DNA from: a virus
Reading direction: 5' to 3' (one strand)
IMG/VR virus record: IMGVR_UViG_3300023184_003237
Span: 4,746 to 68,745 of that record
Length of the DNA: 64,000 bases
Shown: one piece after another, positions 40,233-64,000 of the stretch
Layout of the letters: each line of letters starts with the position of its first letter
How positions within the stretch are numbered: the first letter of the stretch is position 1
Program-made: the position numbers and the translations under genes
Notes under the pieces: generated by a model
What the model was told of the DNA's origin: nothing
Databases searched by the model: none
The model's input: only the letters and a program-made list of their open reading frames with translations

Positions 40233-40234
40233 AA

Positions 40235-44764: not shown

Positions 44765-45666
44765 TGACAAAATACATAATAGGGTTAGGTTGCAGCTGGA
44801 CACAAGGCGAGGGAGGATACCCTGAACAAGTTTGGAAAGATCATGGTGGAAGAGTTCAAGTAAGGGGACGGGATGATTACTATTTACGTGCAATTGAACA
44901 TGAAAACAGTTGGGTAAATGTCTTATGCCGTGATCATTTTACTGATCATATTCCTATAAATTTGGGTGCTAGAGGAATAGGTAATAGAGGTGCAGTACAT
45001 CAATTGCACTTCTGTGATAAGGTAGATTTTAATAATAGTACTGGTATTATTGTTTTAATGATGAGCGGATTTGAACGTTTTGATTTCTTTGCTCAACGAC
45101 TAAGACGAACATCAATGGCAGGACAAGCACTTGCACCCGATGATTTTTATTCTACTGGGGAGTATACGCATTACAAATGGAGAACAATGTGGCCGTCAGT
45201 GGGACATGGCGGTGGTGAACAAGAACTATGGAAAATATATGCTACACAGTTGTGGAGCGAACAATTTGTTGCAAGTGAACAAATGATGGCATTATTAGAT
45301 TTACAAACATTTGCCAAGGCATATGGATATAAAGTAGTAGTAGCTAATGCATTTAATCAACATGACAGGTCACAAAAATCAAATGATTATCTTAAGGAAC
45401 ATGCTGGCTACCTTGCAGATAAATTTGATTGGGAAAATTCTTATTTACATAATACTACATCATATACAGCATTTATGCAGAAACTTGTAGAATTAGATGG
45501 ATTAATGAAACCAGACGAATGGGGAGGATACTATTCGTTTTATAGTAAAAGAGATTGGCCCGCTAAATACTTGACAAATTGTGAGGGCGCACACCCAACC
45601 ATAGAAGGATACAAAGTGATCGGTAAAGAACTTGCCGATTTTATAAAATTACGTAACTATGCCTAA
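44764..45666 (+). CDS. SGNH-hydrolase-like protein (GCS variant), possible acyltransferase/esterase
   Basis: Block I GCSWTQG, block II NLGARGIGN, block V GAHPTIEGY. Confidence 0.6.
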   Translation: MTKYIIGLGCSWTQGEGGYPEQVWKDHGGRVQVRGRDDYYLRAIEHENSWVNVLCRDHFTDHIPINLGARGIGNRGAVHQLHFCDKVDFNNSTGIIVLMMSGFERFDFFAQRLRRTSMAGQALAPDDFYSTGEYTHYKWRTMWPSVGHGGGEQELWKIYATQLWSEQFVASEQMMALLDLQTFAKAYGYKVVVANAFNQHDRSQKSNDYLKEHAGYLADKFDWENSYLHNTTSYTAFMQKLVELDGLMKPDEWGGYYSFYSKRDWPAKYLTNCEGAHPTIEGYKVIGKELADFIKLRNYA

Positions 45667-47587: not shown

Positions 47588-48717
47588 ATTTAAGTCAAAT
47601 CGTACAACACGATACGAATAATAAAAAAATTATTGTTGCTACTAGATACTTAGATAATTTTATTTTAACCGATGAAAATTATAGTACTATTGCAGATTGT
47701 ATAAACTCAATCTATTCTATTAATAATAATCTATCAATACAATTTGATTGTGCAGGAGAAGGGTTACCATTACGTGGATTGCTATCAACAGATCAAATTG
47801 TTAGACTATTAGTAAAAAATTTTGATATCAATTTAGATAATATTACCTTTTTATCCGGAAGCATCGAATGTGAAGAAAATCATAGATATTATTTAAAACA
47901 TTGTGCTACTTTTAATTTAATTCCGTTACAAGTGATATTTAATAATGCTTATGAATATCATGCTAGAGATAAAATACAACAAAATTTAGATTTTTATACA
48001 AACATTTTGATAAGAAATGTGTCTATAAAAAAGAAAAAATTTCTTTGTTTTAATAGAAGACCTGCATATCATAGATTATATATAATTGCTGAAGCAATAA
48101 AACGCAATTTGTTAGATGATGCTTATTTTTCAATGTATCTCAATGCAAATGAATCAGATAATATAACAGCAGAGGCTGATGCCAAAATGCCACCAATATC
48201 TCACATGCATATGTTGATGCCAATGTTAGCAGCAGACGTTGAAAAAACAATATTGTCTAATATAGATAAATTTCCAATGAGATTATCATTAAGTATAAGT
48301 GACCCGCACGGTCTTATACATGATTCACATTTGTATAATAATTCATATTTTGGTATAGTAACTGAAACAAAGTTTTTTGCTGACACGAAAGATATGGACA
48401 TATTAAAAAATGATATGCAATTAGATTGCATATTTTTTAGTGAAAAAACATTTAAATTTATTTCCGGAAAATTGCCCTTTGTATTAGTTGGATTCCCTAA
48501 TTCTCTTAAGGTACTCAGAGAAAGAGGATACAAAACGTTCCATCCTTTTATAAATGAAAGTTATGATTCTATTGAAAATGATGAAGAACGATTAAAAGCT
48601 ATTATGAATGAAATTGAAAGACTGTATAATTATACAGATGATGAATTTTTAGAATTTGAAAATAATGTATTACCAATGGTTGAATATAATTTTAAAAAAT
48701 TAATGATGTTAAGATAA
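47584..48717 (+). CDS. Putative GT-B-type glycosyltransferase, paralog 2
   Basis: FLCFNRRPAYHR, NSYFGIVTET, FSEKTFKFI...LPFV and GYKTFHPFINESYD. Confidence 0.5.
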   Translation: MNLSQIVQHDTNNKKIIVATRYLDNFILTDENYSTIADCINSIYSINNNLSIQFDCAGEGLPLRGLLSTDQIVRLLVKNFDINLDNITFLSGSIECEENHRYYLKHCATFNLIPLQVIFNNAYEYHARDKIQQNLDFYTNILIRNVSIKKKKFLCFNRRPAYHRLYIIAEAIKRNLLDDAYFSMYLNANESDNITAEADAKMPPISHMHMLMPMLAADVEKTILSNIDKFPMRLSLSISDPHGLIHDSHLYNNSYFGIVTETKFFADTKDMDILKNDMQLDCIFFSEKTFKFISGKLPFVLVGFPNSLKVLRERGYKTFHPFINESYDSIENDEERLKAIMNEIERLYNYTDDEFLEFENNVLPMVEYNFKKLMMLR

Positions 48718-48733
48718 AAGCGTAAATAATCAT

Positions 48734-51133
48734 ATGAACAAAAAAGTAGCAATGATAGGGGTTGGAAAATTGGGTGAACCAGTAGCAGAAGTAATGGCAA
48801 ACTATTATGATGTTGTTGGATATGATGTAGATACAAAAACACCTACGTTTCCAATGTTAAACACCATAGAAGAAACGGTGAAGGATAAAGATTTTATTTT
48901 TATTGCCGCACCTACCCCACACGATCCAATATACGGGGGTGAAACACCATCTAGTCATTTACCAAATAAAGATTTTGATTATACTATTGCAAAAGATTTA
49001 TTAAATGAAATTAACAAATATGTTAATTCTTCACAGTTAGTTATATTAATTTCAACCGTTCTTCCGGGAACCGTTAGGAATGAATTAAGTACTTGTATTA
49101 CTAATGCTAGATTTATTTATAACCCTTATTTAATTGCAATGGGAACGGTATCATGGGATTTTGTTAATCCAGAAATGGTTATTATTGGGACTGAAAACGG
49201 TGATCTAACCGGTGATGCAAAAGAACTAATTGACTTTTATAAGCCCATGATGAAAAATGACCCTAGATATGAAGTAGGAACATGGGATGAAGCAGAATCA
49301 ATTAAGATTTTTTATAATACATTTATTAGCACAAAACTAGCATTAGTAAACATGATACAAGATGTTGCAGAAACAAATGGTAATATAAATGTTGATGTTG
49401 TAACTAATGCATTAGCAAAATCAACACATAGAATTATGGGCCCGTCATACATGAAAGCAGGACTAGGCGACGCCGGAGCATGTCATCCTAGAGACAATAT
49501 AGCATTGAGATATCTTGCCGATAGATTAGATTTAGGTTACGATTTGTTTGATGCTATTATGAGAGCCAGAGAAGTTCAAGCAGAACGTATGGCATTGCGT
49601 TGTTTAAAAAATGGTAAGAATATTACCATAATTGGCAAGGCATATAAACCAAATGTCCCTTACACCAATGGTAGTGCTAGTATGTTAATAGGACATTATA
49701 TTGAAAAACACGGAGGTAATGTACATTATTATGATGAAAATACTAACGATACCAATTTAAATTTAGAATGGACTGAAGTATATTTAATTGGTTACTGGGA
49801 ATCCTGGGTTGAAAATGTAATACGTAAAATCAAACCAGAGTCTGTATTAATTGATCCATGGCGAAATAATCTTTCTTTAAAGCACCGAGGAGAAGTAATA
49901 CATTATGGAAATACTAAAAAAAAAATAGAAAGTTTGGAACCTCCTAATTACGGTATTGTTAAAATAGCACGTATGCAGGAATTGTTGATAACAGTGTGGC
50001 CTGAATTAAAAGAGCATATCAATAAAATTCATTTGATAGACAGTGGCATTATGACAACAAATGAACCTGTGTTTCATTTAAGATCCACTGAAACTATTAT
50101 CAAAGATATATTAAATGCAAAAAAGAACGGTGCAACCAAATTCTTTCTTTATAACGTATCAGAAGGAGTTCTTCCTCATATGGTTTCTAAAATTCATAGA
50201 ATTGCCAATTTATTAGAGGGTGTTATTGATTCTAAAGATTTCTTTTATGTGTCTGGATCTCCTGATTGTCAAGAAGTATACGATAAAATGTATAACAGAA
50301 AAATATCAGGTAATACATATTGGAAATCAAAAATATCAATTTTGTCCGGACATTTCTTTCAGTTGCTTTCACAATCGATGTATGCTGAATATAATAACAA
50401 AATAGAATATATAGTTGAAGAAAAAAATAAGAAATTTTTGTGTTTTAATAATATGGCTAGAGAACACAGAGCCAGATTGCTTGAATTTATGTTGGCTAAT
50501 AATTATGTTAAAGATGGATATTATTCATTTGAAGGAGCTACTCCTGGCAACAGTGACTGGAAACACATTATGAATATTTTAAATGATGATTTTAAACATA
50601 TAAAACGCAATAGTCATATATTTCCTATGAAATTAAATTTAAAATTAAAAGAAACAGTTAATTTAAATCCATATTGCTACAATTGTAACATAACAGAAGA
50701 TGACCTAAAATATTTTAACAATAGTTATTTTAGTATAGTTACTGAAACCATGTTTTATGATGAAAGTAAAGGAAGATTCCAACGACATGCTACAGAAGAT
50801 TGTATTTTTATCACAGAAAAAACATTTAAATGTATAGTTACAAAACATCCTTTTATCTTATTGGCCCGGCCCGGGATGTTAGCTGAATTAAAGAAAATGG
50901 GATATAAAACTTTTTCTCCCATTATTGATGAAACATATGATACAGTTCAAAATGATGATGATAGGTTAAAGTTAATTCTAACCGAAATTGACAAACTAAT
51001 GAAAAAACCAACAAAAGAATGGGCCGAGTGGCAATCGCAAATCAAAGACATTGTAGAATACAATCATACTCATTTTTATTCTACTAGAGATTATGCAGTA
51101 ACTGAAAATATTGAGAAATATTTTATTGAATAA
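48734..51133 (+). CDS. UDP-glucose/GDP-mannose dehydrogenase family domain fused to a GT-like domain (paralog 3)
   Basis: N-terminal half: GVGKLG Rossmann motif, AAPTP, ISTVLPGT, YNP, AESIKIFYNTF, GACHPRD catalytic Cys motif, AYKPN. C-terminal half: FLCFNN..REHR, NSYFSIVTET, ITEKTFK...KHPFI, GYKTFSPIIDETYD. An A10 run sits at the junction. Confidence 0.82.
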   Translation: MNKKVAMIGVGKLGEPVAEVMANYYDVVGYDVDTKTPTFPMLNTIEETVKDKDFIFIAAPTPHDPIYGGETPSSHLPNKDFDYTIAKDLLNEINKYVNSSQLVILISTVLPGTVRNELSTCITNARFIYNPYLIAMGTVSWDFVNPEMVIIGTENGDLTGDAKELIDFYKPMMKNDPRYEVGTWDEAESIKIFYNTFISTKLALVNMIQDVAETNGNINVDVVTNALAKSTHRIMGPSYMKAGLGDAGACHPRDNIALRYLADRLDLGYDLFDAIMRAREVQAERMALRCLKNGKNITIIGKAYKPNVPYTNGSASMLIGHYIEKHGGNVHYYDENTNDTNLNLEWTEVYLIGYWESWVENVIRKIKPESVLIDPWRNNLSLKHRGEVIHYGNTKKKIESLEPPNYGIVKIARMQELLITVWPELKEHINKIHLIDSGIMTTNEPVFHLRSTETIIKDILNAKKNGATKFFLYNVSEGVLPHMVSKIHRIANLLEGVIDSKDFFYVSGSPDCQEVYDKMYNRKISGNTYWKSKISILSGHFFQLLSQSMYAEYNNKIEYIVEEKNKKFLCFNNMAREHRARLLEFMLANNYVKDGYYSFEGATPGNSDWKHIMNILNDDFKHIKRNSHIFPMKLNLKLKETVNLNPYCYNCNITEDDLKYFNNSYFSIVTETMFYDESKGRFQRHATEDCIFITEKTFKCIVTKHPFILLARPGMLAELKKMGYKTFSPIIDETYDTVQNDDDRLKLILTEIDKLMKKPTKEWAEWQSQIKDIVEYNHTHFYSTRDYAVTENIEKYFIE

Positions 51134-51182
51134 TAAATCCACTGCAACAAAAAGACTTAAATAGTCTATATAGGAGATTAGT

Positions 51183-53426
51183 TTGGATTACACCTTAAAA
51201 GACTTTGCAGTTGATAAATTAGAAGCCAAAGAAAGACCCACGGAAGATATTGCAGATGCCCGTCATCGTAGCATGATGGAAGCTATCGCACCGTACGCAA
51301 AACAAACGGTACAAAAAAACTTAACTCCAGTGTATGTAGACTACAAAACAAGAAAAACTAAATTAGTTTTGGTCTTGTGTCCAGAATGGAGTCCCTTTAT
51401 GCCACCGTTTAGTTTAGCTAGATTGAGTGGCATATCTAAAAGTTCAGGATATGAAACTCATGTTATGGATTTAAATGTCAAGGCATACAATGAATATCGA
51501 ACCGATTGGAAACCCAATAACAAACTTCCATTTAGATTATGGGATCCAACAGGAAGTTGGCATTGGTTAGGTGATACTTACATGAAAGATATTCATCCAG
51601 TATTAGAGCCTTTGCTCAGTAAAGCTGTAGATGATATTGTAGCACTTAACCCAGATGTAGTTGGGTTTAGTATCTATTATATTAGTGAAGCACCTAGCAA
51701 ATGGATGTGTAAAGAATTAAAACGTAGATTGCCCAATGTAAAAATTGCAGTAGGTGGCCCTAACGTTCATAACAGTTGGTTTAAAATTGAACCATACTAT
51801 GATTATGTTGTTATAGGAGAAGGTGAAGCAAACTTATTGTATCTGTTAGATGAAGTTGAAGATGGTATTGTACATAATGAAACTAAAATATTAAATCAAC
51901 CCGAAGATCAACGCATTAACATTAATGGTCTTCCTATGCCAGATTATGAATCTATTGATTTCAGTCAATATGAATTGCCTAATGGCGTTAATTCAGAAAT
52001 AAGTAGAGGATGTACTGCAAAGTGTACTTTTTGCGAAGAAACACATTTTTGGAAATATCGTCAACGACAAGCAGTTGATTTAATTACTGAACTTGAATGG
52101 CTTTATTATAATAAGGGAACTGATGTTGTTTGGTTTATTGATAGTTTGGTTAATGGTAATTTAAAAGAACTTAGAGCATTTGTTAAAGGTGTGGTTGCAA
52201 AAGACCTTAAAATTAAATGGACAGGATATGCCCGTTGTGATGGTCGTATGGATTTAGAATATATGCAAGACTTAGCAGCAGGTGGGTGTGTTATGTTTAA
52301 CTATGGAATCGAATCCGGAAGTCAAAAAGTTTTAGATGATATGTCTAAAGGTGTTACTATCGCTGAGATGGAACAAAACTTTATTGATGGAAAGAAAGTT
52401 GGTATATGGGCATCAACAAATTGGATAGTGGGGTTTCCCACTGAAGATTTTCAAGACTACGCTGATAGTATGACATTGTTATGGCGTATGAGAAATAACA
52501 ATATTAATAACGCAGGGTTAGGTGTAGGATTCTCACAGGGTCCAGAAACTATAGTTGGACAAAACCCACATAGATATAATTTAAGCTGGCACAAGTATCA
52601 AGGACATTGGATTACAAATGACTTTACTATGGGTGGTACTCATGTAATGACTAGAGTAAAAACATTTCATATGTTTGCTGATTTTTTAAAGGGATGCACT
52701 GATATTCCAATTGGGTATCCGGTAAGAACTAGTTTAGCTAGAGATCATTATAAAATAACATTAAATAACAACAATTGTATTAGAGAGATTGAATATGAAA
52801 AATTTGATTATAATATAATTAAACCAAATATTAATTCATTTGCAGATACATTAGTAAATGAGATGTGGCCATTCTTTAGAATGTTATGGAAAACTAGGGG
52901 GGGATATACTGCTGAAGTTAAATTTAATCCTGATATTGATTTGATAGAGTTTGGTAGTCAGTTTGGCCCAGGCATGTATAACGCTGTTTATAAGTTTACT
53001 ATTAGTGATGAAGGCAAGTGGGATGCTGATTTTGATATTAAGTTTGATCAAATAGACAATAACTTTGATGACAGATTGCCACCACCTGAAGGAAGAAAGG
53101 GTCCGTTCTATGCACAAGATTATAGCAGAATTCAAGCTAATACTGCTAAACGTGCTAGAAAATTAGCAAAGCCAGATTGGGACCTTGAATTAGGTAGAAA
53201 CACACAAGACTTTACTGACTTATTAAATGAAGAACAATTATTCAACGACACGATAGATTTCTCATTTAAATTACATTGGGTAGACTCGGGTGATTGGAGC
53301 AACTATACTGATTATGAAGTAAAAGTATCAGATACTACCAGTGTAGTAATTCCTGAAAAAGAAGCAATGACTCAAGCAGAATTTGTATCTATTGATATAT
53401 CAACTATTAAAATTAAAACAACATGA
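51183..53426 (+). CDS. B12-binding-domain radical SAM enzyme
   Basis: TTG start after an AGGAG SD. Motifs PPFSLARL, PDVVGFSIY, GGPNV, GEGE, SRGCTAKCTFC, GIESGSQKVL and WIVGFPTE. Confidence 0.88.
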   Translation: MDYTLKDFAVDKLEAKERPTEDIADARHRSMMEAIAPYAKQTVQKNLTPVYVDYKTRKTKLVLVLCPEWSPFMPPFSLARLSGISKSSGYETHVMDLNVKAYNEYRTDWKPNNKLPFRLWDPTGSWHWLGDTYMKDIHPVLEPLLSKAVDDIVALNPDVVGFSIYYISEAPSKWMCKELKRRLPNVKIAVGGPNVHNSWFKIEPYYDYVVIGEGEANLLYLLDEVEDGIVHNETKILNQPEDQRININGLPMPDYESIDFSQYELPNGVNSEISRGCTAKCTFCEETHFWKYRQRQAVDLITELEWLYYNKGTDVVWFIDSLVNGNLKELRAFVKGVVAKDLKIKWTGYARCDGRMDLEYMQDLAAGGCVMFNYGIESGSQKVLDDMSKGVTIAEMEQNFIDGKKVGIWASTNWIVGFPTEDFQDYADSMTLLWRMRNNNINNAGLGVGFSQGPETIVGQNPHRYNLSWHKYQGHWITNDFTMGGTHVMTRVKTFHMFADFLKGCTDIPIGYPVRTSLARDHYKITLNNNNCIREIEYEKFDYNIIKPNINSFADTLVNEMWPFFRMLWKTRGGYTAEVKFNPDIDLIEFGSQFGPGMYNAVYKFTISDEGKWDADFDIKFDQIDNNFDDRLPPPEGRKGPFYAQDYSRIQANTAKRARKLAKPDWDLELGRNTQDFTDLLNEEQLFNDTIDFSFKLHWVDSGDWSNYTDYEVKVSDTTSVVIPEKEAMTQAEFVSIDISTIKIKTT

Positions 53427-54172
53427 AACAAAAAATAATGTTAATTGCCGGTTGTAGCCATTCATCCGGGTCAGAAATAGATGGAACACAGGATTCTTAT
53501 TATAATAGACAACATTCATATGGAAATTTGCTAGCAGGTAAAATTGGATATACTCCAATTAATACAGCAGACCCGGGTGCCACAAATTCAACCATTGCTA
53601 GAAGTGTTTTACAATGGGTTAGTGAAAAATATGATCCTGAAACTATGGAAGTATTTGTATTAGTTAGCTGGACAGACTGCATTAGAATGGAAGTTCCGTG
53701 GGAACGAATGTCTTGGTACGGTGAGCATAGTCCATATATGGATTATCATGCTAATAGTGGAGATAAATATTTAAGGGTGAGTATAGGATGGCCTGGCGGA
53801 GATCCTGAAGAAAAACTTTTAATTCCAGATTATCATGACTTTATATCAAAAAATGAAAAATATTTGGAAATATTGAGTGCTAATTTAATACTCCAAGTTC
53901 AGTATTTTTTGAAATCAAAAAACATAAATTATATAATGTGCAACACAATGTGTATGTTTGATAAAAAAACGTCACACAATGATTTTTACCTATCACTAAT
54001 TGATCACACTAAATATTACAACATAACGGATAACTCTCAATCATTTTATATAAAATATAAAGATTTGGGGTATACTAATCCTAAAGCAAAATATTGGCAT
54101 CACAATGAAACTCCTCATGCATTATATGCCGATGAGTTGTATAATTTTATAGAGGCAAACAAATGTTTATAG
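53423..54172 (+). CDS. SGNH-hydrolase-like protein (GCS variant)
   Basis: IAGCSHSSG, NTADPGATNSTIAR, VSWT and WHHNETPH motifs. Confidence 0.55.
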   Translation: MKQKIMLIAGCSHSSGSEIDGTQDSYYNRQHSYGNLLAGKIGYTPINTADPGATNSTIARSVLQWVSEKYDPETMEVFVLVSWTDCIRMEVPWERMSWYGEHSPYMDYHANSGDKYLRVSIGWPGGDPEEKLLIPDYHDFISKNEKYLEILSANLILQVQYFLKSKNINYIMCNTMCMFDKKTSHNDFYLSLIDHTKYYNITDNSQSFYIKYKDLGYTNPKAKYWHHNETPHALYADELYNFIEANKCL

Positions 54173-54261
54173 TAAGATGGTTTAAAAATTTGATTAGAGA
54201 ATATAAATATCGCAAGCGATTAAAAGAACTACGTAAGCGTGATCCGTTTATTTACAAATGA
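54163..54261 (+). CDS. 32-aa basic micro-protein MFIVRWFKNLIREYKYRKRLKELRKRDPFIYK (missing from the ORF track)
   Basis: GAGG SD upstream. It bridges the gap between neighbours and its TGA overlaps the carbamoyltransferase ATG (ATGA). Confidence 0.7.
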   Translation: MFIVRWFKNLIREYKYRKRLKELRKRDPFIYK

Positions 54262-55739
54262 ACTATATAGGCATATCAGCTGGCTTCCATGATGCAGCCG
54301 TTAGCGTAGTAGATAAACATGGCAATATATTGTTTGCTGGTCACAGCGAACGTTATAGTAAAAAAAAGCACGACAAGGATGTGTGTGAAAGATTGATGTA
54401 CGATGCATTCCAACACACCAATTCTGCATATTTACAATATCATTACTACGAACGGCCGTGGTTAAAATCATTGCGTCAACTGCGTAGTGGTGAAGGCTTT
54501 ACTTGGCCGTCATGGGAAAAGATATTGGGTGTTACTTATTACCAAATTGGCTCCCCCAAAATTCATACACATGGTCATCATCTATGCCATGCAGCCGCCG
54601 GATTTCAAACAAGTCCCTTTAATGATGCTACCGTTGTAGTAATTGACGCTATTGGGGAATTTGATACCATCACTATTTGGGATGCACATTATGATTCCTC
54701 AACTGGTAAAGCAAAATACAAAAAACTATGGAGCATGAAGTATCCAAACAGCATTGGTTTATTTTATTCAGCAATGACTAAAAGAGTTGGGCTACGCCCG
54801 CTAGATGAAGAATACATTCTAATGGGTATGGCAGCATATGGAAAACCTATACATCTAAAGGATATGATAAGTGAGTTAGTGGATAATAAAGATATATTCA
54901 CTTTTAAGCAAAATCTACATATAGGTGTTAGTAAAGATTTCTTAAAAGATGCTGATAATTACAACATTGCTAGTACGTCCCAAGAGTTAGTAGAACATAT
55001 GATTACTAGAGTAATAGCTAAAGCTAGAATGATAGGCTCTAGTAAGAATCTAGTATACGGAGGCGGCGTAGCATTGAATTGTTTAGCAAACAGATTACTG
55101 GGGAACTTTTATGAAAATATTTGGATTATGCCTAACCCCGGCGATGCTGGCAATAGTTTGGGTGCAGCATGCCTTGGGCATGGTACTAAAGTTAATTGGA
55201 CTGATGCTTTTCTTGGTCATAACATCCCTGGCAAGTATCCTGTTAATAACATACTTGATGTGTTACTTACTGATCGGATTGTTGGTGTCGCATCAGGACG
55301 AGCAGAGTTCGGCCCGAGAGCATTGGGTAACAGAAGTTTACTTGCAGACCCAAGAGGACATTCAATTAAAAACAAAGTAAATGAGATTAAACGCAGACAA
55401 CAGTTTAGACCATTTGCCCCTGTCATATTAGAAGAATATGCTCACCAATACTTTGATATGCCTAAGCACTGGAATGATAGTAGATATATGCAAGTGATTA
55501 GCAAGTGTAAGTATCCTGAAAAATTCCCTGCTATTGTACATCATGACGGGACTAGCCGTGTACAAACTGTGCCAAAAGATGGATCTGGCATCAGAGAGTT
55601 ATTAGAAAAATGGTATGTAATGACAGAATGCCCCATGTTGTTGAATACAAGTTTAAATATACGCGGTGAGCCAATGGTCAACGACCGTAGTGATGCTGAT
55701 AGATTTGAAAAACTATACGGGGTTAAAGTTTTATCATAA
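54258..55739 (+). CDS. O-carbamoyltransferase, NodU/CmcH family
   Basis: HDAAV, ERYSKKKHD, HHLCHAAAG, DAIGE, GGVALNC, PGDAG, EFGPRALGNRS, FRPFAP, VHHDGTSRVQTV and LLNTSLN motifs. Confidence 0.93.
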   Translation: MNYIGISAGFHDAAVSVVDKHGNILFAGHSERYSKKKHDKDVCERLMYDAFQHTNSAYLQYHYYERPWLKSLRQLRSGEGFTWPSWEKILGVTYYQIGSPKIHTHGHHLCHAAAGFQTSPFNDATVVVIDAIGEFDTITIWDAHYDSSTGKAKYKKLWSMKYPNSIGLFYSAMTKRVGLRPLDEEYILMGMAAYGKPIHLKDMISELVDNKDIFTFKQNLHIGVSKDFLKDADNYNIASTSQELVEHMITRVIAKARMIGSSKNLVYGGGVALNCLANRLLGNFYENIWIMPNPGDAGNSLGAACLGHGTKVNWTDAFLGHNIPGKYPVNNILDVLLTDRIVGVASGRAEFGPRALGNRSLLADPRGHSIKNKVNEIKRRQQFRPFAPVILEEYAHQYFDMPKHWNDSRYMQVISKCKYPEKFPAIVHHDGTSRVQTVPKDGSGIRELLEKWYVMTECPMLLNTSLNIRGEPMVNDRSDADRFEKLYGVKVLS

Positions 55740-55747
55740 GTAATTAA

Positions 55748-58700
55748 ATGCTAAGAGATGTATTTTATTACGGTAATAAACCCAATGTTCACCCAAGAGA
55801 AAAATTTGCAACTTCAATAGAAGATGCTAGACAACAATGTACCACTGAACATTTTTGGATAATCAACGAATACTGTGATTATCAGAATTTTGATTGGGAC
55901 TTTGATTTTGAATTCTTACCCAATGAAGATGTATGGGCGGAAGAACACAACAACGTATGGCCTAGTCAGCATCAAAAAGATAGCGGAACCTGGCTATGCT
56001 CATCTCAACCAAGTCAAGTAATTATTTATAGAAATGATGTTAATCCGGTAATTCGTAAAAATATAAAAAATGATAATTGGGTATTGGTATATCCAGTTGA
56101 CGAAACTAAATTTGATTTTAGTTGGCACCCAGATCCAACAGATCCTCCCTATATACATTCATGGGGATGTAAATTTTTCCCAGTAGAATTGCAAGCCTGT
56201 GTAGAATATCATGCACCAGGTGCCAGTACTATAAAGTATATGAGAGGTGTTGTAGAATTATTACCCCAGCCTGATAAATTTGACCATTTTGAAAATAGTT
56301 ATGATATAGATTATTCTTGGGTACCTGATCCAACAAGCCCTCCCTACATTTATGTATGGGGAAATCAGTGGAACAAACCTGAAGATAAAATTAGTATTCA
56401 GTATGTTGTAGAAGGTGCAACAGAATATAAGTTTATGAAAGAACGGGCTACACGTAAACCATGTTTAGAAAATTGGGCTATTCCTGAAAATATTGATTAT
56501 AAAAATTTTGATTATTCATGGGAACCTAGTCCAGCCGAACCACCTTTCATTTATCAATTTGGAACACAATGGCAAAAAACAGGTGGGCCTCGATATGAGG
56601 TTGAGGGTGCAACAGAAATCAAGTATATAGATATTTTTAAAGCTAAAAGATTAGTTAATATGACTAATTGGACCTTACCTAAAAATATTGATATTAAAGA
56701 TTTTGATTTTAGTTGGCACCCAGACGATACCAGTCCTCCATACATATATAGATTTCCAACTCAATGGGCTATGAGTGGTGGACCAGTATATGTTGTACCT
56801 GAGGCAACTGAAATAAAATATATTGACACATTGGTAGCAAAAGCTACAGCGTCAATGGATAATTGGGAGATACCTGATTATATTGATGTTGATAATTTTG
56901 ATTATAGTTGGCATCCATATATAGAAGATGAACCTTACATATATCAATTTGGTACTCAATGGCAAAAGACCGGGGGCCCAAAATATATAACTCCCGGGAC
57001 AAATAAAAATAGTCCTGTGAAATATATTGATACACGTATTATTAAAGCAAAACGACTACCTAATAAAAAAGCATTTACTACATTAGATAATATTGTAATT
57101 AAAGATTTTGATTATTCATGGCATCCAGATACTACAGAAGAATCTTTTATTTATGTGTTTGGAAATACGCAGTATCCAGCAGAAATAATGCCTACAATTG
57201 AGTATGTGATGCCAGGGGCAACTCAAATAAAATATATAAATGATATAGTTGTTAAATTAGGAGAAAATAGAAATAACTGGATAATTACACAACCTATTGC
57301 TGAGGATAACTTTGACTTTAGTTGGGTGCCTAATCCCAAAGATCCTCCTTACATATATACATGGGGTAATAAATATATTTCTAATTTATATAAGCCGACG
57401 ATTCAATATAAAGTAGAAGGCGCAATTGAAATAAAATATATGGATGATCTTGTTAAAGTATTACCTGAATTAGATAAATGGGTGATACCGGCTAATATTG
57501 ATGATAGTTTTTTTGATTATACATGGAGACCTGATCCATTAGAACCAGATTTAATTTGGCAGTTCGGAACACAATGGCAAAAGACAGGTGGACCAAGATA
57601 TATAGTACCGGGCGCTACTGAAATAAAATATGTTGACACTCAAAAAGTAAAAGTATTACCAAACAATGTTTATTGGAAAATAATAGATAATCTTAAAATA
57701 AAAGAATTTGATTATTCATGGCATCCGGATGAAACCGAAGAATCTTTTATTTATGTGTTTGGAAATACGCAGTATCCAGCAGAAATAATGCCTACAATTG
57801 AGTATGTGATGCCAGGGGCAACTCAAATAAAATATATAGGAGAAGTTATTGCTCTACTTGATGTAGATATGAATGGATGGATAGTACCTGACAATATTGA
57901 TATTGGTGAGTTTGATTTTAGCTGGAAGCCTAATCCCAAAGACCCAGCCTACATATATGAGTTTGGCACTCAATGGCAAAAGACAGGTGGACCACGATAT
58001 ATAATACCGGGTGCTACTGAAATAAAATATGTTGACACTCAAAAAGTTAAAATATTAACAAATAAATTAAATTGGATTATACCTAAAAAGATTGATATTA
58101 CAGATTTTGATTTTAGCTGGCATCCAGATGACTCCAGTCCTCCATACATATATAGATTTCCAACTCAATGGGCTACTAGTGGCGGACCAGAATACATTGT
58201 ATCAGGTGCAACTGAAATAAAATATATTGACATATTGATGGCAAAAGCAGTACCTGACAAAACAAATTGGGAATTTGATCCTACAACGATTGATGTTAAT
58301 AATTTTGATTTTAGTTGGCATCCATATATAGAAGATGAGCCGTACATATATCAATTTGGTACTCAATGGCAAAAGACAGGTGGCCCGCGCTATGTAACTC
58401 CTGGAGCGCATAAAAATAGCCCTGTGAAATATATTGATACACGTATTATTAAATCAAAACGTTTATCTAATAAAAAATATTGGAGAACAGTCAACAATTA
58501 TGTAATTGCTGATTTTGATTATAGTTGGCATCCTGATGAAACCGAAGAATCTTTTATATATGTTTTTGGCAATACGCAGTATCCAGCAGAGATAATGCCT
58601 ACTATTGAATATTATATTCCTGGAGCTGATCAATACAAATATATAAATGATATAGTTGTAAAGCTAGGGGAAAATAAATTAAATTGGATCATTCCTAATA

Positions 58701-61700
58701 ACGTAGATACTACTGACTTTGATTTCAGTTGGGTGCCTAATCCCAAAGACCCAGCCTACATATATGAGTTTGGTACTCAATGGCAAAAGACAGGTGGACC
58801 AAGATATATAGTACCGGGCGCTACTGAAATAAAATACGTTGACACTCAAAAAGTACTGGCACTGCCTAATAAAAATAATTGGGTAATGCCGATCGGGTTA
58901 AAAATTGCTAGTTTTGATTATTCATGGCATCCAGATGCAACGGAAGAAGATTATATTTATCAATTTGGCACTCAATGGGTAATGACCGGCGGACCCAAGT
59001 ATGTAATGCCCGGGGCTACACAAGTTAAATATATTGACAATAATAATGCTATAATTGGTCCTAATAAAGCAAATTGGGTAATACCTAAAAATATTGCAGT
59101 AGACCAATTTGATTTTAGTTGGCATCCACATCCCGATGATCCTATGTTCATCTATCATTTTGGTACACAATGGCAAAAGACCGGCGGTCCAAAATATTTA
59201 ACGCCCGGCGTTAATAAAGATAGTCCAGTAAAATATATTGATACACGTATTATTAAAGCAAAAAGATTACCTGAAAAGGATAATTTTATAATTTTAGATA
59301 ATATTGTTATTAAGGATTTTGATTATTCATGGCATCCGGACGAGACAGATACTCCATTCATTTACGTATTTGGAAATACGCAGTATCCAGCAGAGATAAT
59401 GCCTACTATTCAATATATACCTAAAGAAATTGCTAAATTATCCTCAGATAACCCAATTGGTCAAATTAAATATGTTACTGATATTGTTGCAAAATTGGGA
59501 CCAAACAAAACTAACTGGGTAATTCCTGATAATGTTATTGCTTTTGATTATAGCTGGGTACCTAATCCTAAAGACCCGGATTACATATATGAATTTGGCA
59601 CGCAATGGCATGACAGGGGGGGACCAAGATATGTACCTAATAGTATACCTAGGCTAGCTTCGGGTGAACCCATTGGTCAAATTAAATATGTTACTGATAT
59701 TGTTGCAAAATTGGGAGAAAATAAATCTTGCTGGAATATTCCAGATGATATTGATTTAAATAATTTTGATTTTAGCTGGGTTCCTCATCCAAACGAACCT
59801 GCCTATATTTATATATTTGGTACTCAATGGCAAAAAACAGGTGGACCTACGTATGTGCCTGAGGCTATTCCAATATTGGCATCAGGTAAACCAATTGGGC
59901 AACTCAAATATGTTGACTCTATCCATGCTACAAAATTGCCATCTAAAAAATATTGGTTCAATCCTAATCAATCAGATATTAGCACATTTGATTATAGCTG
60001 GCACCCAGATGAAACTGCACCACCCTACATATATCAATTTGGTACATTGCTAGATAAAGAGGATGGCCCTAGGTATATGTCACCAAACACAAACGGTGAA
60101 ATAATATATTTGGAAAGAGTAGAAAGAACTGAGATAGAGATTGAAATACCCATAGAAAAAATAGAAGGTTTTCCTAAATATATTATTACAACAACCTTAG
60201 AAGATTTAATTGAACAGCACCCTAATAAATTATTCTGGGCATTAAATCCTGATTTAGATTATAGTGAGTTTGATTTTGATTGGCGACCTGATATTGAGCA
60301 ATCACAATATTTACATGCTTTTGGTTCACAGGATAATATTAATACACAAACATATTTTGTTAACGCAGCGTCCTGGTTAAAAGGATTCAAAGATATTAAC
60401 TACGTAGAAGATAAAACTATTAATGTAAAAATTAATATCGATATGTTTTTTGTAGACAGAAGTAACAATGAATCACAGGTAAGATTTGAAGGGTTAAAAC
60501 AACAATTTCCTAATATACAAAAGACTCGCTACTTGAATAGTTGGGTCGATACTATTAATCGTTGCATTAATCGTGCTAGTAGTAATTTGTGCTGGATATT
60601 GAACAGTGAATTAGATTATAGTGATTTTGATTTCAACTATTATCCTAATCCATGGCAAATGAAGATGGTTCATGTGTTTGGTACGCAATGGAGCCATTGG
60701 GGAACCACATTTATGGTTAACCGCGAAACATTTGCACAAGATACAAAATTTATTAAGATAATTGAACATCTTTCTAACTTGAACTTTGTTAAAGACAGAA
60801 AAGCAAAGGCAACAAACATCTTGTATGATATTGTTTATATTGACCATGGTAACACGGACATGACACAACTTAAAAAAGAAGGAAAATTAATAGTCAACTA
60901 TCAGGATAGTTATATTGCAACATTGCAAAAAATGTTAAGTATGCTTACTGTAAAAAAAGAACATTATGTTTGGGTAGCTAGCACAGTATGTGATTATAAA
61001 GATTTTGATTTTACTTATATATGCGATCCGTTTGCTAAAGATCAATTACATGTATTTCCTAGCGATAGACAGAAGTTTGGGGACACATTCTTAATTGATG
61101 TTAACAAACTTAGAACATTGATTGAAGATATGAATACATTAGAAGATTATGAAAAAATTAATTATAATCAAAGTCAGAGAGTTAAAAGATTATCAGCACC
61201 GGTTATTGTAACTAAAGAAGATACTCATGTAAACAATATAAATTCAATATTCAATTTCCCATATGCTGTGTTTATCACTGAGGATAACAAAGACATTAAT
61301 ATCATTGATACTGAACCTATGAGTTTATGGACACCGGAATCTAAAAATATTCAGATTACTAGTGTCGGTGGAACACGTATTGTTGTTCCAAAAGAAGCCA
61401 AAGATTATATAAAACATGAATTATATGATTACCCATATATCATTACTAATAGCCGACTTGCTAAATCTAATCCATTGGATATTGTATTTTTTAGTAACGG
61501 AGAAACTAGTGCAGATACAAATTACGAACATTTATTAAAAATAACGCAAGGGTTACCAAATAAAGTAGTAAGAATAGATGGGGTAAGCGGTCGTGTAAAT
61601 AGTCAACATGTAGCAGCAAATTCTAGTGACACTCAATGGTATTTTCTAGTTAATGCTAAATTAAAAGTAAATTCTAAATTTGATTTTAACTGGCAACCGG

Positions 61701-62146
61701 ATAGATTACAAATTCCAAAGCATTATATTTTTCATGCCACTAACCCTGTTAACGGGTTAAAGTATGGTCACCAAGCTATTGTTGCTAACAATAAAAAACT
61801 TACACTAGAAAACTTTGGAACTGGATTAGACTTTACTATGGATAGTGAACATGAGATTATTAAAATCAACTCAGGTGTTGCAATATTTAATACTAGTGCA
61901 TGGGACACCTGGCGTACAGCATTCCGTGAATGTATTAAACTTAAAGCATCATCTACTGATGAAAGCAAAGAACGTTTGGAAATGTGGTTAACTGTGGGTA
62001 TGGGTGAGTTCAATGAATACAGCATGGAAGGTGCACAACATGCAGTAGAATACTATAACGAAGTTAACGGGGACTTTGATAAATTAAGATTAAGTTATGA
62101 TTGGCCTTGGTTGAAAGAAAAATTTAATTTTTATTATAACATATGA
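55748..62146 (+). CDS. 2132-aa repeat protein: about 20 'FD(F/Y)SWxP...YIYxFG' modules plus degenerate GT-A-like domains
   Basis: Tandem 65-75-aa repeats span about 56111-60045. The C-terminal domain (61475-62146) aligns with the 35436..36389 GT but has NAK in place of DGD. Confidence 0.75.
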   Translation: MLRDVFYYGNKPNVHPREKFATSIEDARQQCTTEHFWIINEYCDYQNFDWDFDFEFLPNEDVWAEEHNNVWPSQHQKDSGTWLCSSQPSQVIIYRNDVNPVIRKNIKNDNWVLVYPVDETKFDFSWHPDPTDPPYIHSWGCKFFPVELQACVEYHAPGASTIKYMRGVVELLPQPDKFDHFENSYDIDYSWVPDPTSPPYIYVWGNQWNKPEDKISIQYVVEGATEYKFMKERATRKPCLENWAIPENIDYKNFDYSWEPSPAEPPFIYQFGTQWQKTGGPRYEVEGATEIKYIDIFKAKRLVNMTNWTLPKNIDIKDFDFSWHPDDTSPPYIYRFPTQWAMSGGPVYVVPEATEIKYIDTLVAKATASMDNWEIPDYIDVDNFDYSWHPYIEDEPYIYQFGTQWQKTGGPKYITPGTNKNSPVKYIDTRIIKAKRLPNKKAFTTLDNIVIKDFDYSWHPDTTEESFIYVFGNTQYPAEIMPTIEYVMPGATQIKYINDIVVKLGENRNNWIITQPIAEDNFDFSWVPNPKDPPYIYTWGNKYISNLYKPTIQYKVEGAIEIKYMDDLVKVLPELDKWVIPANIDDSFFDYTWRPDPLEPDLIWQFGTQWQKTGGPRYIVPGATEIKYVDTQKVKVLPNNVYWKIIDNLKIKEFDYSWHPDETEESFIYVFGNTQYPAEIMPTIEYVMPGATQIKYIGEVIALLDVDMNGWIVPDNIDIGEFDFSWKPNPKDPAYIYEFGTQWQKTGGPRYIIPGATEIKYVDTQKVKILTNKLNWIIPKKIDITDFDFSWHPDDSSPPYIYRFPTQWATSGGPEYIVSGATEIKYIDILMAKAVPDKTNWEFDPTTIDVNNFDFSWHPYIEDEPYIYQFGTQWQKTGGPRYVTPGAHKNSPVKYIDTRIIKSKRLSNKKYWRTVNNYVIADFDYSWHPDETEESFIYVFGNTQYPAEIMPTIEYYIPGADQYKYINDIVVKLGENKLNWIIPNNVDTTDFDFSWVPNPKDPAYIYEFGTQWQKTGGPRYIVPGATEIKYVDTQKVLALPNKNNWVMPIGLKIASFDYSWHPDATEEDYIYQFGTQWVMTGGPKYVMPGATQVKYIDNNNAIIGPNKANWVIPKNIAVDQFDFSWHPHPDDPMFIYHFGTQWQKTGGPKYLTPGVNKDSPVKYIDTRIIKAKRLPEKDNFIILDNIVIKDFDYSWHPDETDTPFIYVFGNTQYPAEIMPTIQYIPKEIAKLSSDNPIGQIKYVTDIVAKLGPNKTNWVIPDNVIAFDYSWVPNPKDPDYIYEFGTQWHDRGGPRYVPNSIPRLASGEPIGQIKYVTDIVAKLGENKSCWNIPDDIDLNNFDFSWVPHPNEPAYIYIFGTQWQKTGGPTYVPEAIPILASGKPIGQLKYVDSIHATKLPSKKYWFNPNQSDISTFDYSWHPDETAPPYIYQFGTLLDKEDGPRYMSPNTNGEIIYLERVERTEIEIEIPIEKIEGFPKYIITTTLEDLIEQHPNKLFWALNPDLDYSEFDFDWRPDIEQSQYLHAFGSQDNINTQTYFVNAASWLKGFKDINYVEDKTINVKINIDMFFVDRSNNESQVRFEGLKQQFPNIQKTRYLNSWVDTINRCINRASSNLCWILNSELDYSDFDFNYYPNPWQMKMVHVFGTQWSHWGTTFMVNRETFAQDTKFIKIIEHLSNLNFVKDRKAKATNILYDIVYIDHGNTDMTQLKKEGKLIVNYQDSYIATLQKMLSMLTVKKEHYVWVASTVCDYKDFDFTYICDPFAKDQLHVFPSDRQKFGDTFLIDVNKLRTLIEDMNTLEDYEKINYNQSQRVKRLSAPVIVTKEDTHVNNINSIFNFPYAVFITEDNKDINIIDTEPMSLWTPESKNIQITSVGGTRIVVPKEAKDYIKHELYDYPYIITNSRLAKSNPLDIVFFSNGETSADTNYEHLLKITQGLPNKVVRIDGVSGRVNSQHVAANSSDTQWYFLVNAKLKVNSKFDFNWQPDRLQIPKHYIFHATNPVNGLKYGHQAIVANNKKLTLENFGTGLDFTMDSEHEIIKINSGVAIFNTSAWDTWRTAFRECIKLKASSTDESKERLEMWLTVGMGEFNEYSMEGAQHAVEYYNEVNGDFDKLRLSYDWPWLKEKFNFYYNI
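57137..57838 (+). repeat. 102-bp perfect direct repeat (57137-57238 and 57737-57838)
   Basis: GAAGAATCTTTTATTTATGTG...CAAATAAAATATATA is identical in both copies, which are exactly 600 bp apart. Confidence 0.92.
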
Positions 62147-63165
62147 AAAATTTGACAATAGATTATTGGAACCATCATGTTGACCGATATGGTTTTATGA
62201 AAAAGATATTTGATAAAGAACCAGTAGACAACATAATAATTTTTGCTTGCAATGAATGGGATACATTGTCAATTTTTGGTAATGTGTATGTATGGGATTA
62301 TTTTCACTATTATGTACAAAAAGAAAAAATTAAAATAGAATTGATAACTGCTAGTCCGATACCATATCAATCTGAAAATTTAAACATTACATATTGGGGA
62401 GAATATTGGTTAATAAAAACATATGCAAATGTTATGAGGCCGGATGCGTCAAAAGCTATTAAGCTGAAAAAAGAAAAGGCAATGGGATTAAAATATCATT
62501 TTATTTGTATGAATCATAGACCCCATATTCATCGGTGTCGTCTTATAGATTTGTTAGAAAAAAATAATTTAATATCTAGTAATGCAATTTCTTGGCACAA
62601 TACTAACGAATTTGGTACATATCCCTTTGAATATTTTAAACCTAAAATGTTAAAATTTAATCAAACTTTTGATTCATATGCTGAAGATAAAAATACGAGC
62701 AATTTACCAATCGAATATTTTCAATCATTTGCACAATTGATTTCTGAAAGCACCGACGAACATATGTTTTTTTCAGAAAAAGTATCAATGGCATTAATTT
62801 GGGAAAAACCTTTTTTAGCGCATTCGGGTCCCGGACTTCATAAATATTTAACAACGTTAGGATTTGAGTTATATACTGAAATTTTTGATTATTCATTTGA
62901 TTCGGAACTTGACTCTAAAAAAAGACTTAATATGATAGTAAATAATTTTATCAAACTATGTGAAATTCCATTAGATAAATTGAAAAAAATAGAAAATCAA
63001 CTACAACCTAAGTTAGAACATAATAAAAATAGAGCAAAAGAAATTGCAATGAATATTGATAAATTTCCAGAAATAATTAAATCTTTTAAAGATGATTTTT
63101 CGGCATTAACTGATATATATGAAAATATTAATTATATTAATTATATTCAAAATCTTACTAAATAA
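62143..63165 (+). CDS. Putative GT-B-type glycosyltransferase, paralog 4
   Basis: FICMNHRPHIHR, QSFAQLISES, FSEKVSMAL..EKPFL and GFELYTEIFDYSFD. Confidence 0.5.
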   Translation: MKNLTIDYWNHHVDRYGFMKKIFDKEPVDNIIIFACNEWDTLSIFGNVYVWDYFHYYVQKEKIKIELITASPIPYQSENLNITYWGEYWLIKTYANVMRPDASKAIKLKKEKAMGLKYHFICMNHRPHIHRCRLIDLLEKNNLISSNAISWHNTNEFGTYPFEYFKPKMLKFNQTFDSYAEDKNTSNLPIEYFQSFAQLISESTDEHMFFSEKVSMALIWEKPFLAHSGPGLHKYLTTLGFELYTEIFDYSFDSELDSKKRLNMIVNNFIKLCEIPLDKLKKIENQLQPKLEHNKNRAKEIAMNIDKFPEIIKSFKDDFSALTDIYENINYINYIQNLTK

Positions 63166-63168
63166 TAT

Positions 63169-63360
63169 ATGATAGTAAAACTTGCAAACAAAATCGGACA
63201 GGCACATGCTAAGTTCTTTATGTGGTTAGGGCGCAAAGCCGAAACTAACCCATGGTGGGCAGTTGCATTAACTATTTGGGCATTGTATGAAATTGGTGAA
63301 CATATTGCCGGTCCAGTTATGGCAATCATGTATGCTACTGGGCACCTAGTTGTTCAATAA
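63169..63360 (+). CDS. Small putative membrane protein
   Basis: 63 aa with hydrophobic segments (PWWAVALTIWALY; GPVMAIMY). Confidence 0.6.
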   Translation: MIVKLANKIGQAHAKFFMWLGRKAETNPWWAVALTIWALYEIGEHIAGPVMAIMYATGHLVVQ

Positions 63361-63410
63361 TGTCAACTAAATACATGTCTACCGCGTTATATATGTATAG
63401 GAGATAAATT

Positions 63411-63740
63411 ATGAAGAAATTACTTTTGGTTGCACTAACATTAATGGTCAGTAATATGGCTTTTGCTCAAGATTGTCGTTGGGGTATAGATCATCGTCAT
63501 CCAGGATGCGGACCTCGTTGGGAACACAGACCCGTTATTGTTGAACGTAATGATTGGGTAGCCCCATTGATTATTGGTGGTATTGCTGGTGCAGTTATTG
63601 CCAATGCTAATCAGCAACCAGTTGTTGTTCAACGTGAACAAGTGATTGTACAACAACCACAAACTGTTTGTACTTCTTGGAAAGAAATTCAACAACCAGA
63701 TGGACAGATTTACCGTGAGCGTAATTGCTATCAACGATAA
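63411..63740 (+). CDS. Putative exported small protein
   Basis: AGGAG SD, signal-peptide-like MKKLLLVALTLMVSNMAFA, a GGIAGAVIA segment and two Cys pairs. Confidence 0.7.
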   Translation: MKKLLLVALTLMVSNMAFAQDCRWGIDHRHPGCGPRWEHRPVIVERNDWVAPLIIGGIAGAVIANANQQPVVVQREQVIVQQPQTVCTSWKEIQQPDGQIYRERNCYQR

Positions 63741-63749
63741 ATAAAAAGA

Positions 63750-64000
63750 TAGTTGTAATCCCTTCAAAGAGGATGTGTTCAAGACGCCGGTTCGAATCCG
63801 GCCAGGTCCACCATAAACACATAGACCGTGCATTATCGTCATTTGACGGTGGTAAACAGAATGACGTAACTGGAACCCTTGTTATGTGTTTATGATGGGC
63901 CTGCTCTGGTAATCGATTGGGCAAATAGTCAGCGACGGCAACTCGGTAGATGACGACCGTTAATCGCATAAAATCAATAACTGCAAACGACGAGTTATAT
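63750..64000 (+). ncRNA. ssrA: Circularly permuted (two-piece) tmRNA gene, 3'-truncated by the window edge
   Basis: The acceptor piece ends GAC-GCCGG-TTCGAAT-CCGGC-CAGGTCC-A-CCA (63783-63813). The coding piece starts GGGCCTG at 63897, which pairs with CAGGTCC and gives G3:U70. TTGGGCA (63917-23) pairs with TGTTCAA (63776-82). The resume context AATAACT-GCA AAC GAC GAG TTA TAT encodes ANDELY from 63983. Confidence 0.9.

Follow-up and report, generated by a model that had tools for sequence, protein, structure and literature searches.

The two-piece tmRNA gene at the contig end

The stretch of DNA analyzed here (the window) comprises 64,000 nucleotides and corresponds to bases 4746-68745 of a 68,745-base virus record of IMG/VR (IMGVR_UViG_3300023184_003237), classed as linear and about 11% complete. 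At its 3' end the window carries a gene for a circularly permuted, two-piece transfer-messenger RNA (tmRNA; gene, ssrA). The permuted order can be read directly, since the 5' acceptor strand and the tag frame come after the T-arm and the CCA end. Since the end of the window is also the contig end of the virus record, the gene is truncated. All of its features lie on the plus strand. A first-pass annotation, made from the sequence alone, had already proposed such a gene, and on re-reading of the window the acceptor piece, the start of the coding piece and every coordinate it gave within 63736-64000 proved exact.

The acceptor piece (63751..63813) was delimited from Rfam alignments, pair counts and the acceptor pieces of relatives. 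It carries the 5' strands of the inter-piece helices (in the Rfam alignment, AGTTG at 63751-55, CC at 63761-62, TC at 63764-65, GA at 63769-70 and TGTTCAA at 63776-82), followed by the T-arm (63786-63802; GCCGG at 63786-90, TTCGAAT at 63791-97 and CCGGC at 63798-802), the acceptor 3' strand CAGGTCC (63803-09), the discriminator A (63810) and an encoded CCA (63811-13). An intervening segment or spacer (63814..63896), expected to be excised from the precursor, separates this piece from the 5' part of the coding piece (63897..64000), which is cut by the contig end and is 100% identical to positions 3338-3441 of a related viral locus, L008. The coding piece opens with the acceptor 5' strand GGGCCTG (63897-903), whose G3 pairs with the U at 63807, and contains a D-loop analogue (CTCTGGTAATCGA), the segment GGCAACT (63937-43), a hairpin (CGGT/ACCG, 63944-47/63956-59) and the resume codon GCA (63983). 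Two further inter-piece pairings named in the first-pass annotation were found with their strands in place, namely AGTTGT (63751-56) with GCAACT (63938-43) and TGTTCAA (63776-82) with TTGGGCA (63917-23). Direct translation likewise confirmed the tag frame resuming at 63983, its first six codons (GCA AAC GAC GAG TTA TAT, 63983-64000) encoding ANDELY.

Two Rfam models of permuted tmRNA matched the window above their gathering scores. The match to RF01850 (beta_tmRNA) spans 63717-64000 (+) and scores 103.4 bits (gathering 84; E 2.4e-30), that to RF04321 (tmRNA_permuted) spans 63751-64000 (+) and scores 107.9 bits (gathering 47; E 4.4e-20), and each is flagged as 3'-cut. The sequence pattern is thus far beyond chance. 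The Rfam models and ARAGORN were the checks that had been suggested for the gene; the latter program reported 0 genes in the window, because the copy there is truncated, not because it is absent.

Complete copies were available in relatives. An exact 27-mer at the start of the coding piece identified 12 other viral contigs (L002-L013), all of which gave full-length matches to RF01850 (96.3-143.3 bits, model positions 1-331) and scored above the cut-off of RF04321; in 11 of the 12, ARAGORN called a permuted tmRNA (label tmRNA*) with a complete tag. Positions 3190-3441 of L008 are 100% identical to 63749-64000 of the window, and L011, from a 229,851-base contig, is 91.4% identical to it over 63157-64000. 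Reading on past 64,000 in L008, the gene ends as had been anticipated, in ...AA and a stop codon (tag ANDELYSMAA*), followed by a short 3' hairpin and an intrinsic terminator (GAACCCGCTTCGGCGGGTTT, then a T-run). ARAGORN gave the same tag in L010 and ANDELYSLAA* in L011, which is syntenic with the window, so the full tag of the window gene would be ANDELYSMAA or ANDELYSLAA. A second T-arm/CCA end downstream of the tag, which according to the first-pass annotation would make this an ordinary one-piece ssrA, does not occur in L008 or L010, where the tag is followed by the hairpin and terminator only. The window gene is a real, phage-encoded two-piece tmRNA gene and very probably functional.

Conservation of the RNA fold

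For an analysis of structural conservation, 14 unique phage-type genes were aligned, and 46 pairs were scored, comprising the Rfam beta-type helices and two 3' hairpins. Standard pairing was observed in 97.1% of the cells, and 18 pairs showed changes on both sides. None of 500 column shuffles reached any of the five observed values, and pairing fell to 26-47% when the partners were slid by 1-3 columns. In the acceptor stem, all seven pairs were standard in all 14 genes (as GGGCCTG/CAGGTCC, GGGGGTG/CACCTCC or GGGGATG/CATCTCC), and pairs 4 and 5 were changed on both sides in three of them. The alanine identity pair G3:U70, which had been noted in the window together with the 7-bp stem, was retained as U:G in 14 of 14. 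The P2-type inter-piece helices (1-4) were 100% paired, with both-side changes in four pairs, and helices 7-9, which lie outside the tRNA-like domain, covary as well. This covariation supports the tmRNA fold.

The spacer of the window folds into an extended hairpin that stacks on the acceptor stem; a 12-bp stem (CATAAACACATA / TATGTGTTTATG) is part of it. The predicted fold of 63803-63903 has an energy of -37.2 kcal/mol (z -4.17), and 0 of 200 shuffles were as good. The window spacer holds this hairpin and no tRNA.

These data also bear on the idea that the gene is a non-functional remnant (an att-site relic) or a decoy of the kind proposed for mycobacteriophage DS6A, an RNA with a tRNA-like domain that sequesters SmpB and inhibits trans-translation in the host. 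Fragments of ssrA are frequent in phages, tmRNA genes are common integration sites (PMC9004378; PMC4131195, as far as their available text goes), and the window copy is itself incomplete. The truncation, however, falls exactly at the contig end; the relatives possess both pieces, an open tag frame with its stop codon and a terminator; the covarying helices 7-9 lie beyond the part that mimics a tRNA; and an integrase domain (PF00589) was found in none of five related records, all of them fragments. A relic or decoy is therefore considered very improbable. The specific case of an ssrA fragment serving as an attachment site (the 3' part alone, beside an integrase) is likewise contradicted by the two pieces, tag and terminator of the relatives and by the same integrase search.

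Phage carriers, cellular relatives and origin

Among the products of the window is a baseplate wedge protein (phrog_10646, E 2.6e-255); its counterparts in jumbo phages of the Rak2/GAP32/Atu_ph07/Phosso type share 32-34% identity with it across 95-100% of the protein. The window also encodes gp25-like and gp5 OB-fold-like baseplate domains. By these sequence relationships, the contig is assigned to a Rak2/GAP32/Atu_ph07-like jumbo myovirus. In five larger records the tmRNA is located mid-contig with phage genes on both sides. One of these, G001 (229,851 nt), carries it at 126,968-127,353, preceded by the same genes as in the window (carbamoyltransferase, 88% identical; a giant protein, 45%) and followed on the same strand by genes for a porin, a metallophosphoesterase, a glycosyltransferase, an ATPase (phrog_1297) and a DUF2201 protein (phrog_1314). 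The phage context agrees with the Rfam matches and with the complete genes of the relatives in upholding a permuted tmRNA encoded by a phage.

The extent of the phage clade was assessed by several searches. A degenerate beta-type pattern recovered 22 viral contigs, of which 20 were of the phage type and low in GC (0.37-0.41). The other two, IMG/VR loci L100 and L105 (62% GC), carry an ordinary cellular-type beta tmRNA with the tag ANDERFALAA, and this is probably the host flank of an integrated element and not a phage gene. A core 21-mer recovered 33 metagenome contigs, all with 36-42% GC; in 26 of them at least one open reading frame (ORF) of 80 amino acids or more matched a protein from known phage contexts, and the remaining seven were short (1.1-3.7 kb). 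The exact 27-mer had no matches in a genome collection with one genome for each of 185,579 species. By blastn, the phage gene matched none of 50,697 GenBank phage records, and a cellular beta-type gene gave partial matches only (13-26% of the query, in three records). The stretch was found in lake and freshwater DNA runs from many studies. In the best of these, numerous short contigs together cover the conserved core to a high depth, coverage of the spacer and tag is thin and a short-spacer variant co-occurs; the window contig likely breaks inside the gene because co-occurring variants share the core.

It might be argued that the tmRNA is bacterial, the contig having been either assembled chimerically across a conserved RNA gene or taken from the junction of a prophage with its host. 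The contig does end inside the gene, at a point where assemblies fragment, and the "viral" contigs L100 and L105 (GC 0.62) do carry a cellular-type gene with the tag ANDERFALAA. Against this, the gene of G001 is flanked by the upstream genes of the window on one side and by genes of phage families on the other, all carriers have 36-42% GC and the 27-mer is missing from the species genomes, and the neighbourhood of the one cellular ssrA compared in this respect (genome G075) differs. Host DNA is thus a most improbable source.

Among cells, the degenerate pattern recovered 74 beta-type genes, mostly from Azonexus/Dechloromonas, Thauera and other Rhodocyclaceae. All 74 lie in DNA of 53-70% GC, have the acceptor strand GGGG[G/C/A]TG and a 1-nt linker, and share about 68-77% identity with the acceptor piece of the phages. 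The RF01850 cut-off was exceeded in 4 of 151 sampled genomes of the order, among them G075 (1.96 Mb, 39% GC locally), which contains a divergent two-piece gene with the tag ANDENFALAA. This gene (L097/L109) and those of G185 (L110) and G186 (L111) form a low-GC cellular set from genomes of 1.7-2.3 Mb; they score 160-169 bits with RF01850, and the permuted form occurs in 3 of 41 sampled genomes of their family. The tag-proximal segment of G186 hardly differs from the phage consensus, and in G185 the start and end of the spacer resemble those of phage spacers (flanks CCACCATAAG ... CTTATGATGGGG). The impression that an ANDE-type tag is beta-like holds, given the tags ANDERFALAA and ANDENFALAA of cellular beta-type genes.

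The betaproteobacterial two-piece tmRNA constitutes a "third lineage" of permuted forms, cited in PMC9004378 to Sharkady and Williams 2004. The phage genes share with it (RF01850) the gene order, break point, helices, ANDE-type tag and 3' hairpin plus terminator, and one phage lineage has kept the layout of its sigma-70 promoter. In contrast to the cellular beta type, most phage copies have the acceptor strand GGGCCTG, the carriers are low-GC jumbo phages, the D-loop analogue has one extra base (CTGGTAATCGA versus CTGGT[T/C]TCGA), and the spacers in most copies are 63-210 nt long, as against 31-43 nt for the cellular spacers of G075, G035, G185 and G186, the four that were measured.

An unrooted tree (78 rows, 162 columns) contained three groups: the phage genes (14 rows, 100/100), the low-GC cells (3 rows, 100/99) and the other cells (61 rows, 98/68). 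One long branch thus separates all phage genes from the cellular ones, an arrangement that fits one capture, possibly from a low-GC betaproteobacterial lineage like that of G075, G185 and G186. This cellular clade is a testable lead to the host. The first-pass annotation had left two origins side by side, capture from a host with such a gene and independent permutation, and the beta-type architecture favours the former. For the latter, a one-piece tmRNA would have been permuted inside phages and have converged on the beta-type layout. The length of the branch (0.35 changes per column) and features peculiar to the phage clade, such as a 2-nt linker and long spacers, could be read in that way; yet the phage genes match RF01850 over its full length, including the 5' promoter-proximal region, and agree with it in break point and 3' hairpins, besides the segment resembling G186 and the spacer flanks resembling G185. 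Independent permutation is disfavoured because of the shared break point, the end-to-end fit to the beta model and the shared spacer flanks, and its probability appears close to negligible.

Taken as a whole, 63751-64000 in all likelihood represents the 5' three-quarters of a functional, phage-encoded beta-type ssrA of a jumbo myovirus, captured once from a betaproteobacterial two-piece lineage and then diversified and moved between related phages. Several observations weigh against parts of this interpretation. The last ~140 nt are absent from the window, the tag end and terminator being supplied by relatives. Minimum-free-energy co-folding of the two separate pieces recovered the acceptor stem and the T-arm only, not the other P2-type helices, and wrongly paired the start of the acceptor piece with the U-tract of the terminator; the inter-piece helices other than the acceptor stem therefore rest on covariation and not on thermodynamics. 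With RF01850 the phage genes score 96-143 bits, as against 292-296 for the cellular members of the Rhodocyclales type, so that the phage RNA is divergent and its fit to host factors is assumed. The tree is a three-way split that places the phage clade nearer neither cellular group. RNA-library contigs with the gene span both pieces and the spacer, as DNA carry-over or a precursor would. Finally, smpB, which the first-pass annotation had advised looking for, was not detected: PF01668 occurred in 0 of the 5 related records (all fragments, 11-61% complete), and the tmRNA must therefore presumably rely on host SmpB.

Tags, expression and genomic neighbourhood

The 20 viral and 33 metagenome loci of the phage type (53 in all) are partly redundant, several of the metagenome contigs being, to judge by their equal lengths, the same records as viral ones. 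Within this set (L002-L013, L099-L108 and L112-L144), the acceptor pieces are 62 nt long in 50 loci and fall into 18 distinct sequences with a mean pairwise identity of 0.91. The spacers comprise 20 distinct sequences of 24-169 nt, with one of 210 nt in L137. The tags are very diverse, with 18 distinct forms of 10-33 residues, for example ANDELYSMAA, ANDESYRIAA, ATAITNEAYALAA and ANANTTGTVKVTMGKNFRFGRQAANDSAVLLAA, and nearly all keep a hydrophobic ...AA end. In these freshwater jumbo phages, the tRNA-like core is strongly conserved and the tag and spacer vary.

In three loci the spacer between the tmRNA pieces contains a tRNA-Arg(CCG) with an encoded CCA, as detected by ARAGORN (L004:6454-6524, minus strand; L005:5646-5719, plus strand; L013:4383-4456, minus strand); that of L004 scored 42.5 bits with RF00005 (cut-off 29). 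One precursor would in such cases give three RNAs. A short-spacer form (24 nt) with a cell-like acceptor stem (GGGGGTG or GGGGATG) was observed in L103, L104, L106 and metagenome loci. With the tree rooted at its midpoint, purely for display, this form splits off first within the phage clade, and it may represent the ancestral state before spacer expansion. Between the window and record G004 (L008), the tmRNA is 100% identical including the otherwise hypervariable 83-nt spacer, and the upstream flanks are unalignable, which suggests recent gene exchange between co-occurring phages, or rearrangement.

Only G004 and G005 encode a ClpX-like unfoldase (zf-C4_ClpX plus AAA_2), about 4.7 kb downstream of their tmRNA (L020:14873-16105, plus strand; G005:C1:37940-38044). 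It was not found in G000-G003, of which G001 is 61% complete, and ClpP was found in 0 of the 5 records.

The variety of tags raises the question of whether the RNA serves mainly as a reprogrammed tagging device, its tags diversified to send tagged proteins to particular proteases (in some lineages a ClpX of the phage itself) or past the adaptors of the host; rescue would proceed by unchanged chemistry, and selection would act on the fate of the tagged proteins. That 18 tags of 10 to 33 residues are borne on 18 acceptor pieces averaging 91% identity speaks for such a role, as do the retained hydrophobic ends and the ClpX-like neighbour in G004 and G005. Bacterial tags, however, are also highly variable, ClpX is absent from the lineage of the window as sampled (G000, and G001 at 61% completeness) and no record carries ClpP, and a primary tagging function is judged rather unlikely. 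A broader proposal, put forward tentatively and with a good deal of doubt, is that this phage-only radiation constitutes a mobile, customisable tagging module. Its core would be frozen for host SmpB, alanyl-tRNA synthetase (AlaRS) and RNase P; the fast-evolving tag, of 10 to 33 residues, would direct the fate of the proteins that receive it, together with a phage ClpX in some lineages; the excised spacer would have expanded, up to 210 nt from as few as 24, into a landing pad able to harbour a functional tRNA-Arg(CCG), one precursor then giving three RNAs; and the module would move between unrelated genome positions of co-occurring jumbo phages, a movement for which the 100% identity of the window and G004 genes, spacer included, within different flanks is the evidence.

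For the RNA as a captured rescue system, a course of action can be proposed whose steps derive from the established biology of permuted tmRNAs. One precursor would be transcribed, with the acceptor piece, spacer and coding piece in that order. RNase P would cut 5' of GGGCCUG and tRNA 3'-end processing would trim to the CCA, whereby the spacer hairpin would be removed. The resulting ~63-nt acceptor piece and ~190-nt coding piece would be held together by the 7-bp acceptor stem and the P2-type helices, and the tRNA-like domain would be charged with alanine via G3:U70. With host SmpB and EF-Tu, the charged RNA would enter stalled ribosomes, translation would resume on GCA, and ANDELYS(M/L)AA would be added as a Clp-type degron. 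The phage would probably benefit from ribosome recycling and from disposal of truncated proteins while host mRNA is destroyed during a long jumbo-phage infection.

Upstream of the window gene lies an ORF of 109 amino acids (63411..63740, plus strand) with a signal-peptide-like N-terminus and no family match, whose stop codon is 10 nt before the tmRNA. The motif GATAAATA (63736-43), pointed out in the first-pass annotation, overlaps this stop codon. As a promoter it is not supported, TATAAATA being rarer in the window than shuffles predict (9 matches versus 20.98 expected; at least 9 in 99 of 100 shuffles), and no sigma-70-like site was recognised in the window between the stop of the ORF at 63740 and the tmRNA. 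A sigma-70 promoter close to consensus (TTGACA-17-TATACT) is present in the G004/G005 lineage and stops 9 nt short of the tmRNA. This promoter was not carried along with the gene, since the homology between the window and L008 begins only at 63749. The window tmRNA may be read through from, or co-transcribed with, the 109-residue ORF. The description of the gene as late-expressed is unsupported, because TATAAATA is not enriched and the sister lineage has a sigma-70-like promoter. Four RNA-labelled runs contained 4-6% of the sampled words; X16 yielded nothing, X17 one 34-nt piece at low depth, and in the RNA library X15 contigs span the acceptor piece, a short spacer and the coding piece, for which DNA carry-over or a precursor is possible. 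None of these runs was used as evidence either way.

With respect to published systems, the assumption that phage tmRNAs are one-piece is outdated. It matches the list in PMC4131195 (2014), in whose accessible part phage tmRNAs are one-piece or consist of the tRNA-like domain only, as opposed to the two-piece phage forms of PMC9004378 (2022). The latter article, in the text available, describes the OM43 phage Melnitz, with a two-piece tmRNA of the alpha lineage and a glutamine riboswitch, and counts 53 ARAGORN-permuted forms among 133 unique phage tmRNAs, 50 of them aquatic. Like Melnitz and the pelagimyophages, the present phages carry a complete permuted ssrA in an aquatic myovirus (lytic and T4-like in that account). 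No phage smpB is reported in that text, as none was found here in the five fragment records, and in both cases the gene adjoins an outer-membrane pore gene (curli CsgGF there, Porin_4 here). In contrast to the alphaproteobacterial lineage and glutamine riboswitch of Melnitz, the best member of the Rfam clan here is RF01850 and not RF01849, and no riboswitch family reached its gathering score in the window or the 12 relatives. The genome of Melnitz is 141.5 kb, and the present phages are jumbo. Huge phages carry tmRNAs within a set of translation-support genes, and some also carry SmpB (Al-Shayeb et al. 2020; PMC7162821, available part), which was not found in the five fragment records here. 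PMC11915505 counts 79 bacteriophage tmRNA sequences and, in its available text, terms a tRNA-Ala in the intervening sequence of a permuted gene a "unique feature" of one nominally archaeal metagenome-assembled genome. The tRNA inside the spacers of L004/L005 and L013 is comparable, but it is a tRNA-Arg(CCG) on phage contigs, and the window spacer is a hairpin.

The literature search found no paper that assigns a permuted phage tmRNA to the beta type, although supplementary Table S1 of PMC9004378 and Table S2 of PMC11915505, which lay outside the search, may list one. As a kind, the two-piece phage tmRNA is already published; as a lineage (beta-type, phage-specific and of freshwater jumbo phages) it appears to be new. 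It adds the betaproteobacterial (third) permuted lineage to the two-piece tmRNAs of phages, Melnitz, the one example whose lineage could be read in the available text, being alpha-type. No new principle is involved, phage tmRNAs, permuted ones included, being in print. The more interesting points lie in the relatives and not in the window, namely the hypervariable tags on a frozen core, the expanded spacers with their nested tRNA-Arg(CCG), the identical genes in different contexts and the porin and ClpX neighbours. The conserved core with its varying tags and spacers offers a natural series in which to ask how a virus profits from a ribosome-rescue RNA of its own and whether the tags serve to redirect proteolysis.

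A Porin_4 gene (Pfam, E 2e-23 to 2.8e-19) follows the tmRNA in G001, G004, L104 and L106 (L019:8757-9641, minus strand; L020:10956-11882, plus strand; L104:1126-2013, minus strand; L106:4659-5585, plus strand), the porins of G001 and G004 being 56% identical. Homologues of the phage porin numbered 0 in 301 genomes of the order, G075 included, at E <= 1e-25, a strict threshold, so that the result is neither a clue to the host nor proof of absence. Joint capture of the tmRNA and porin is not supported, because the ssrA neighbourhood of G075 has no porin.

Elsewhere in the window, a single ORF of 6,631 amino acids (10243-30138, plus strand) directly follows the baseplate genes; it matched no Pfam family above threshold, the sole match being a sub-threshold E1_FCCH. 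A second large ORF (2,132 amino acids, 55748-62146) has no family assignment. Five consecutive genes of the radical-SAM/SPASM type occupy 36383-42471 (plus strand), and 43790-55739 (plus strand) encodes an NAD-dependent sugar epimerase, a UDP-glucose-dehydrogenase fusion (799 amino acids) and a Nol-like carbamoyltransferase. By their sequence assignments, these two regions together form a putative large modification or glycan cluster of the jumbo phage.

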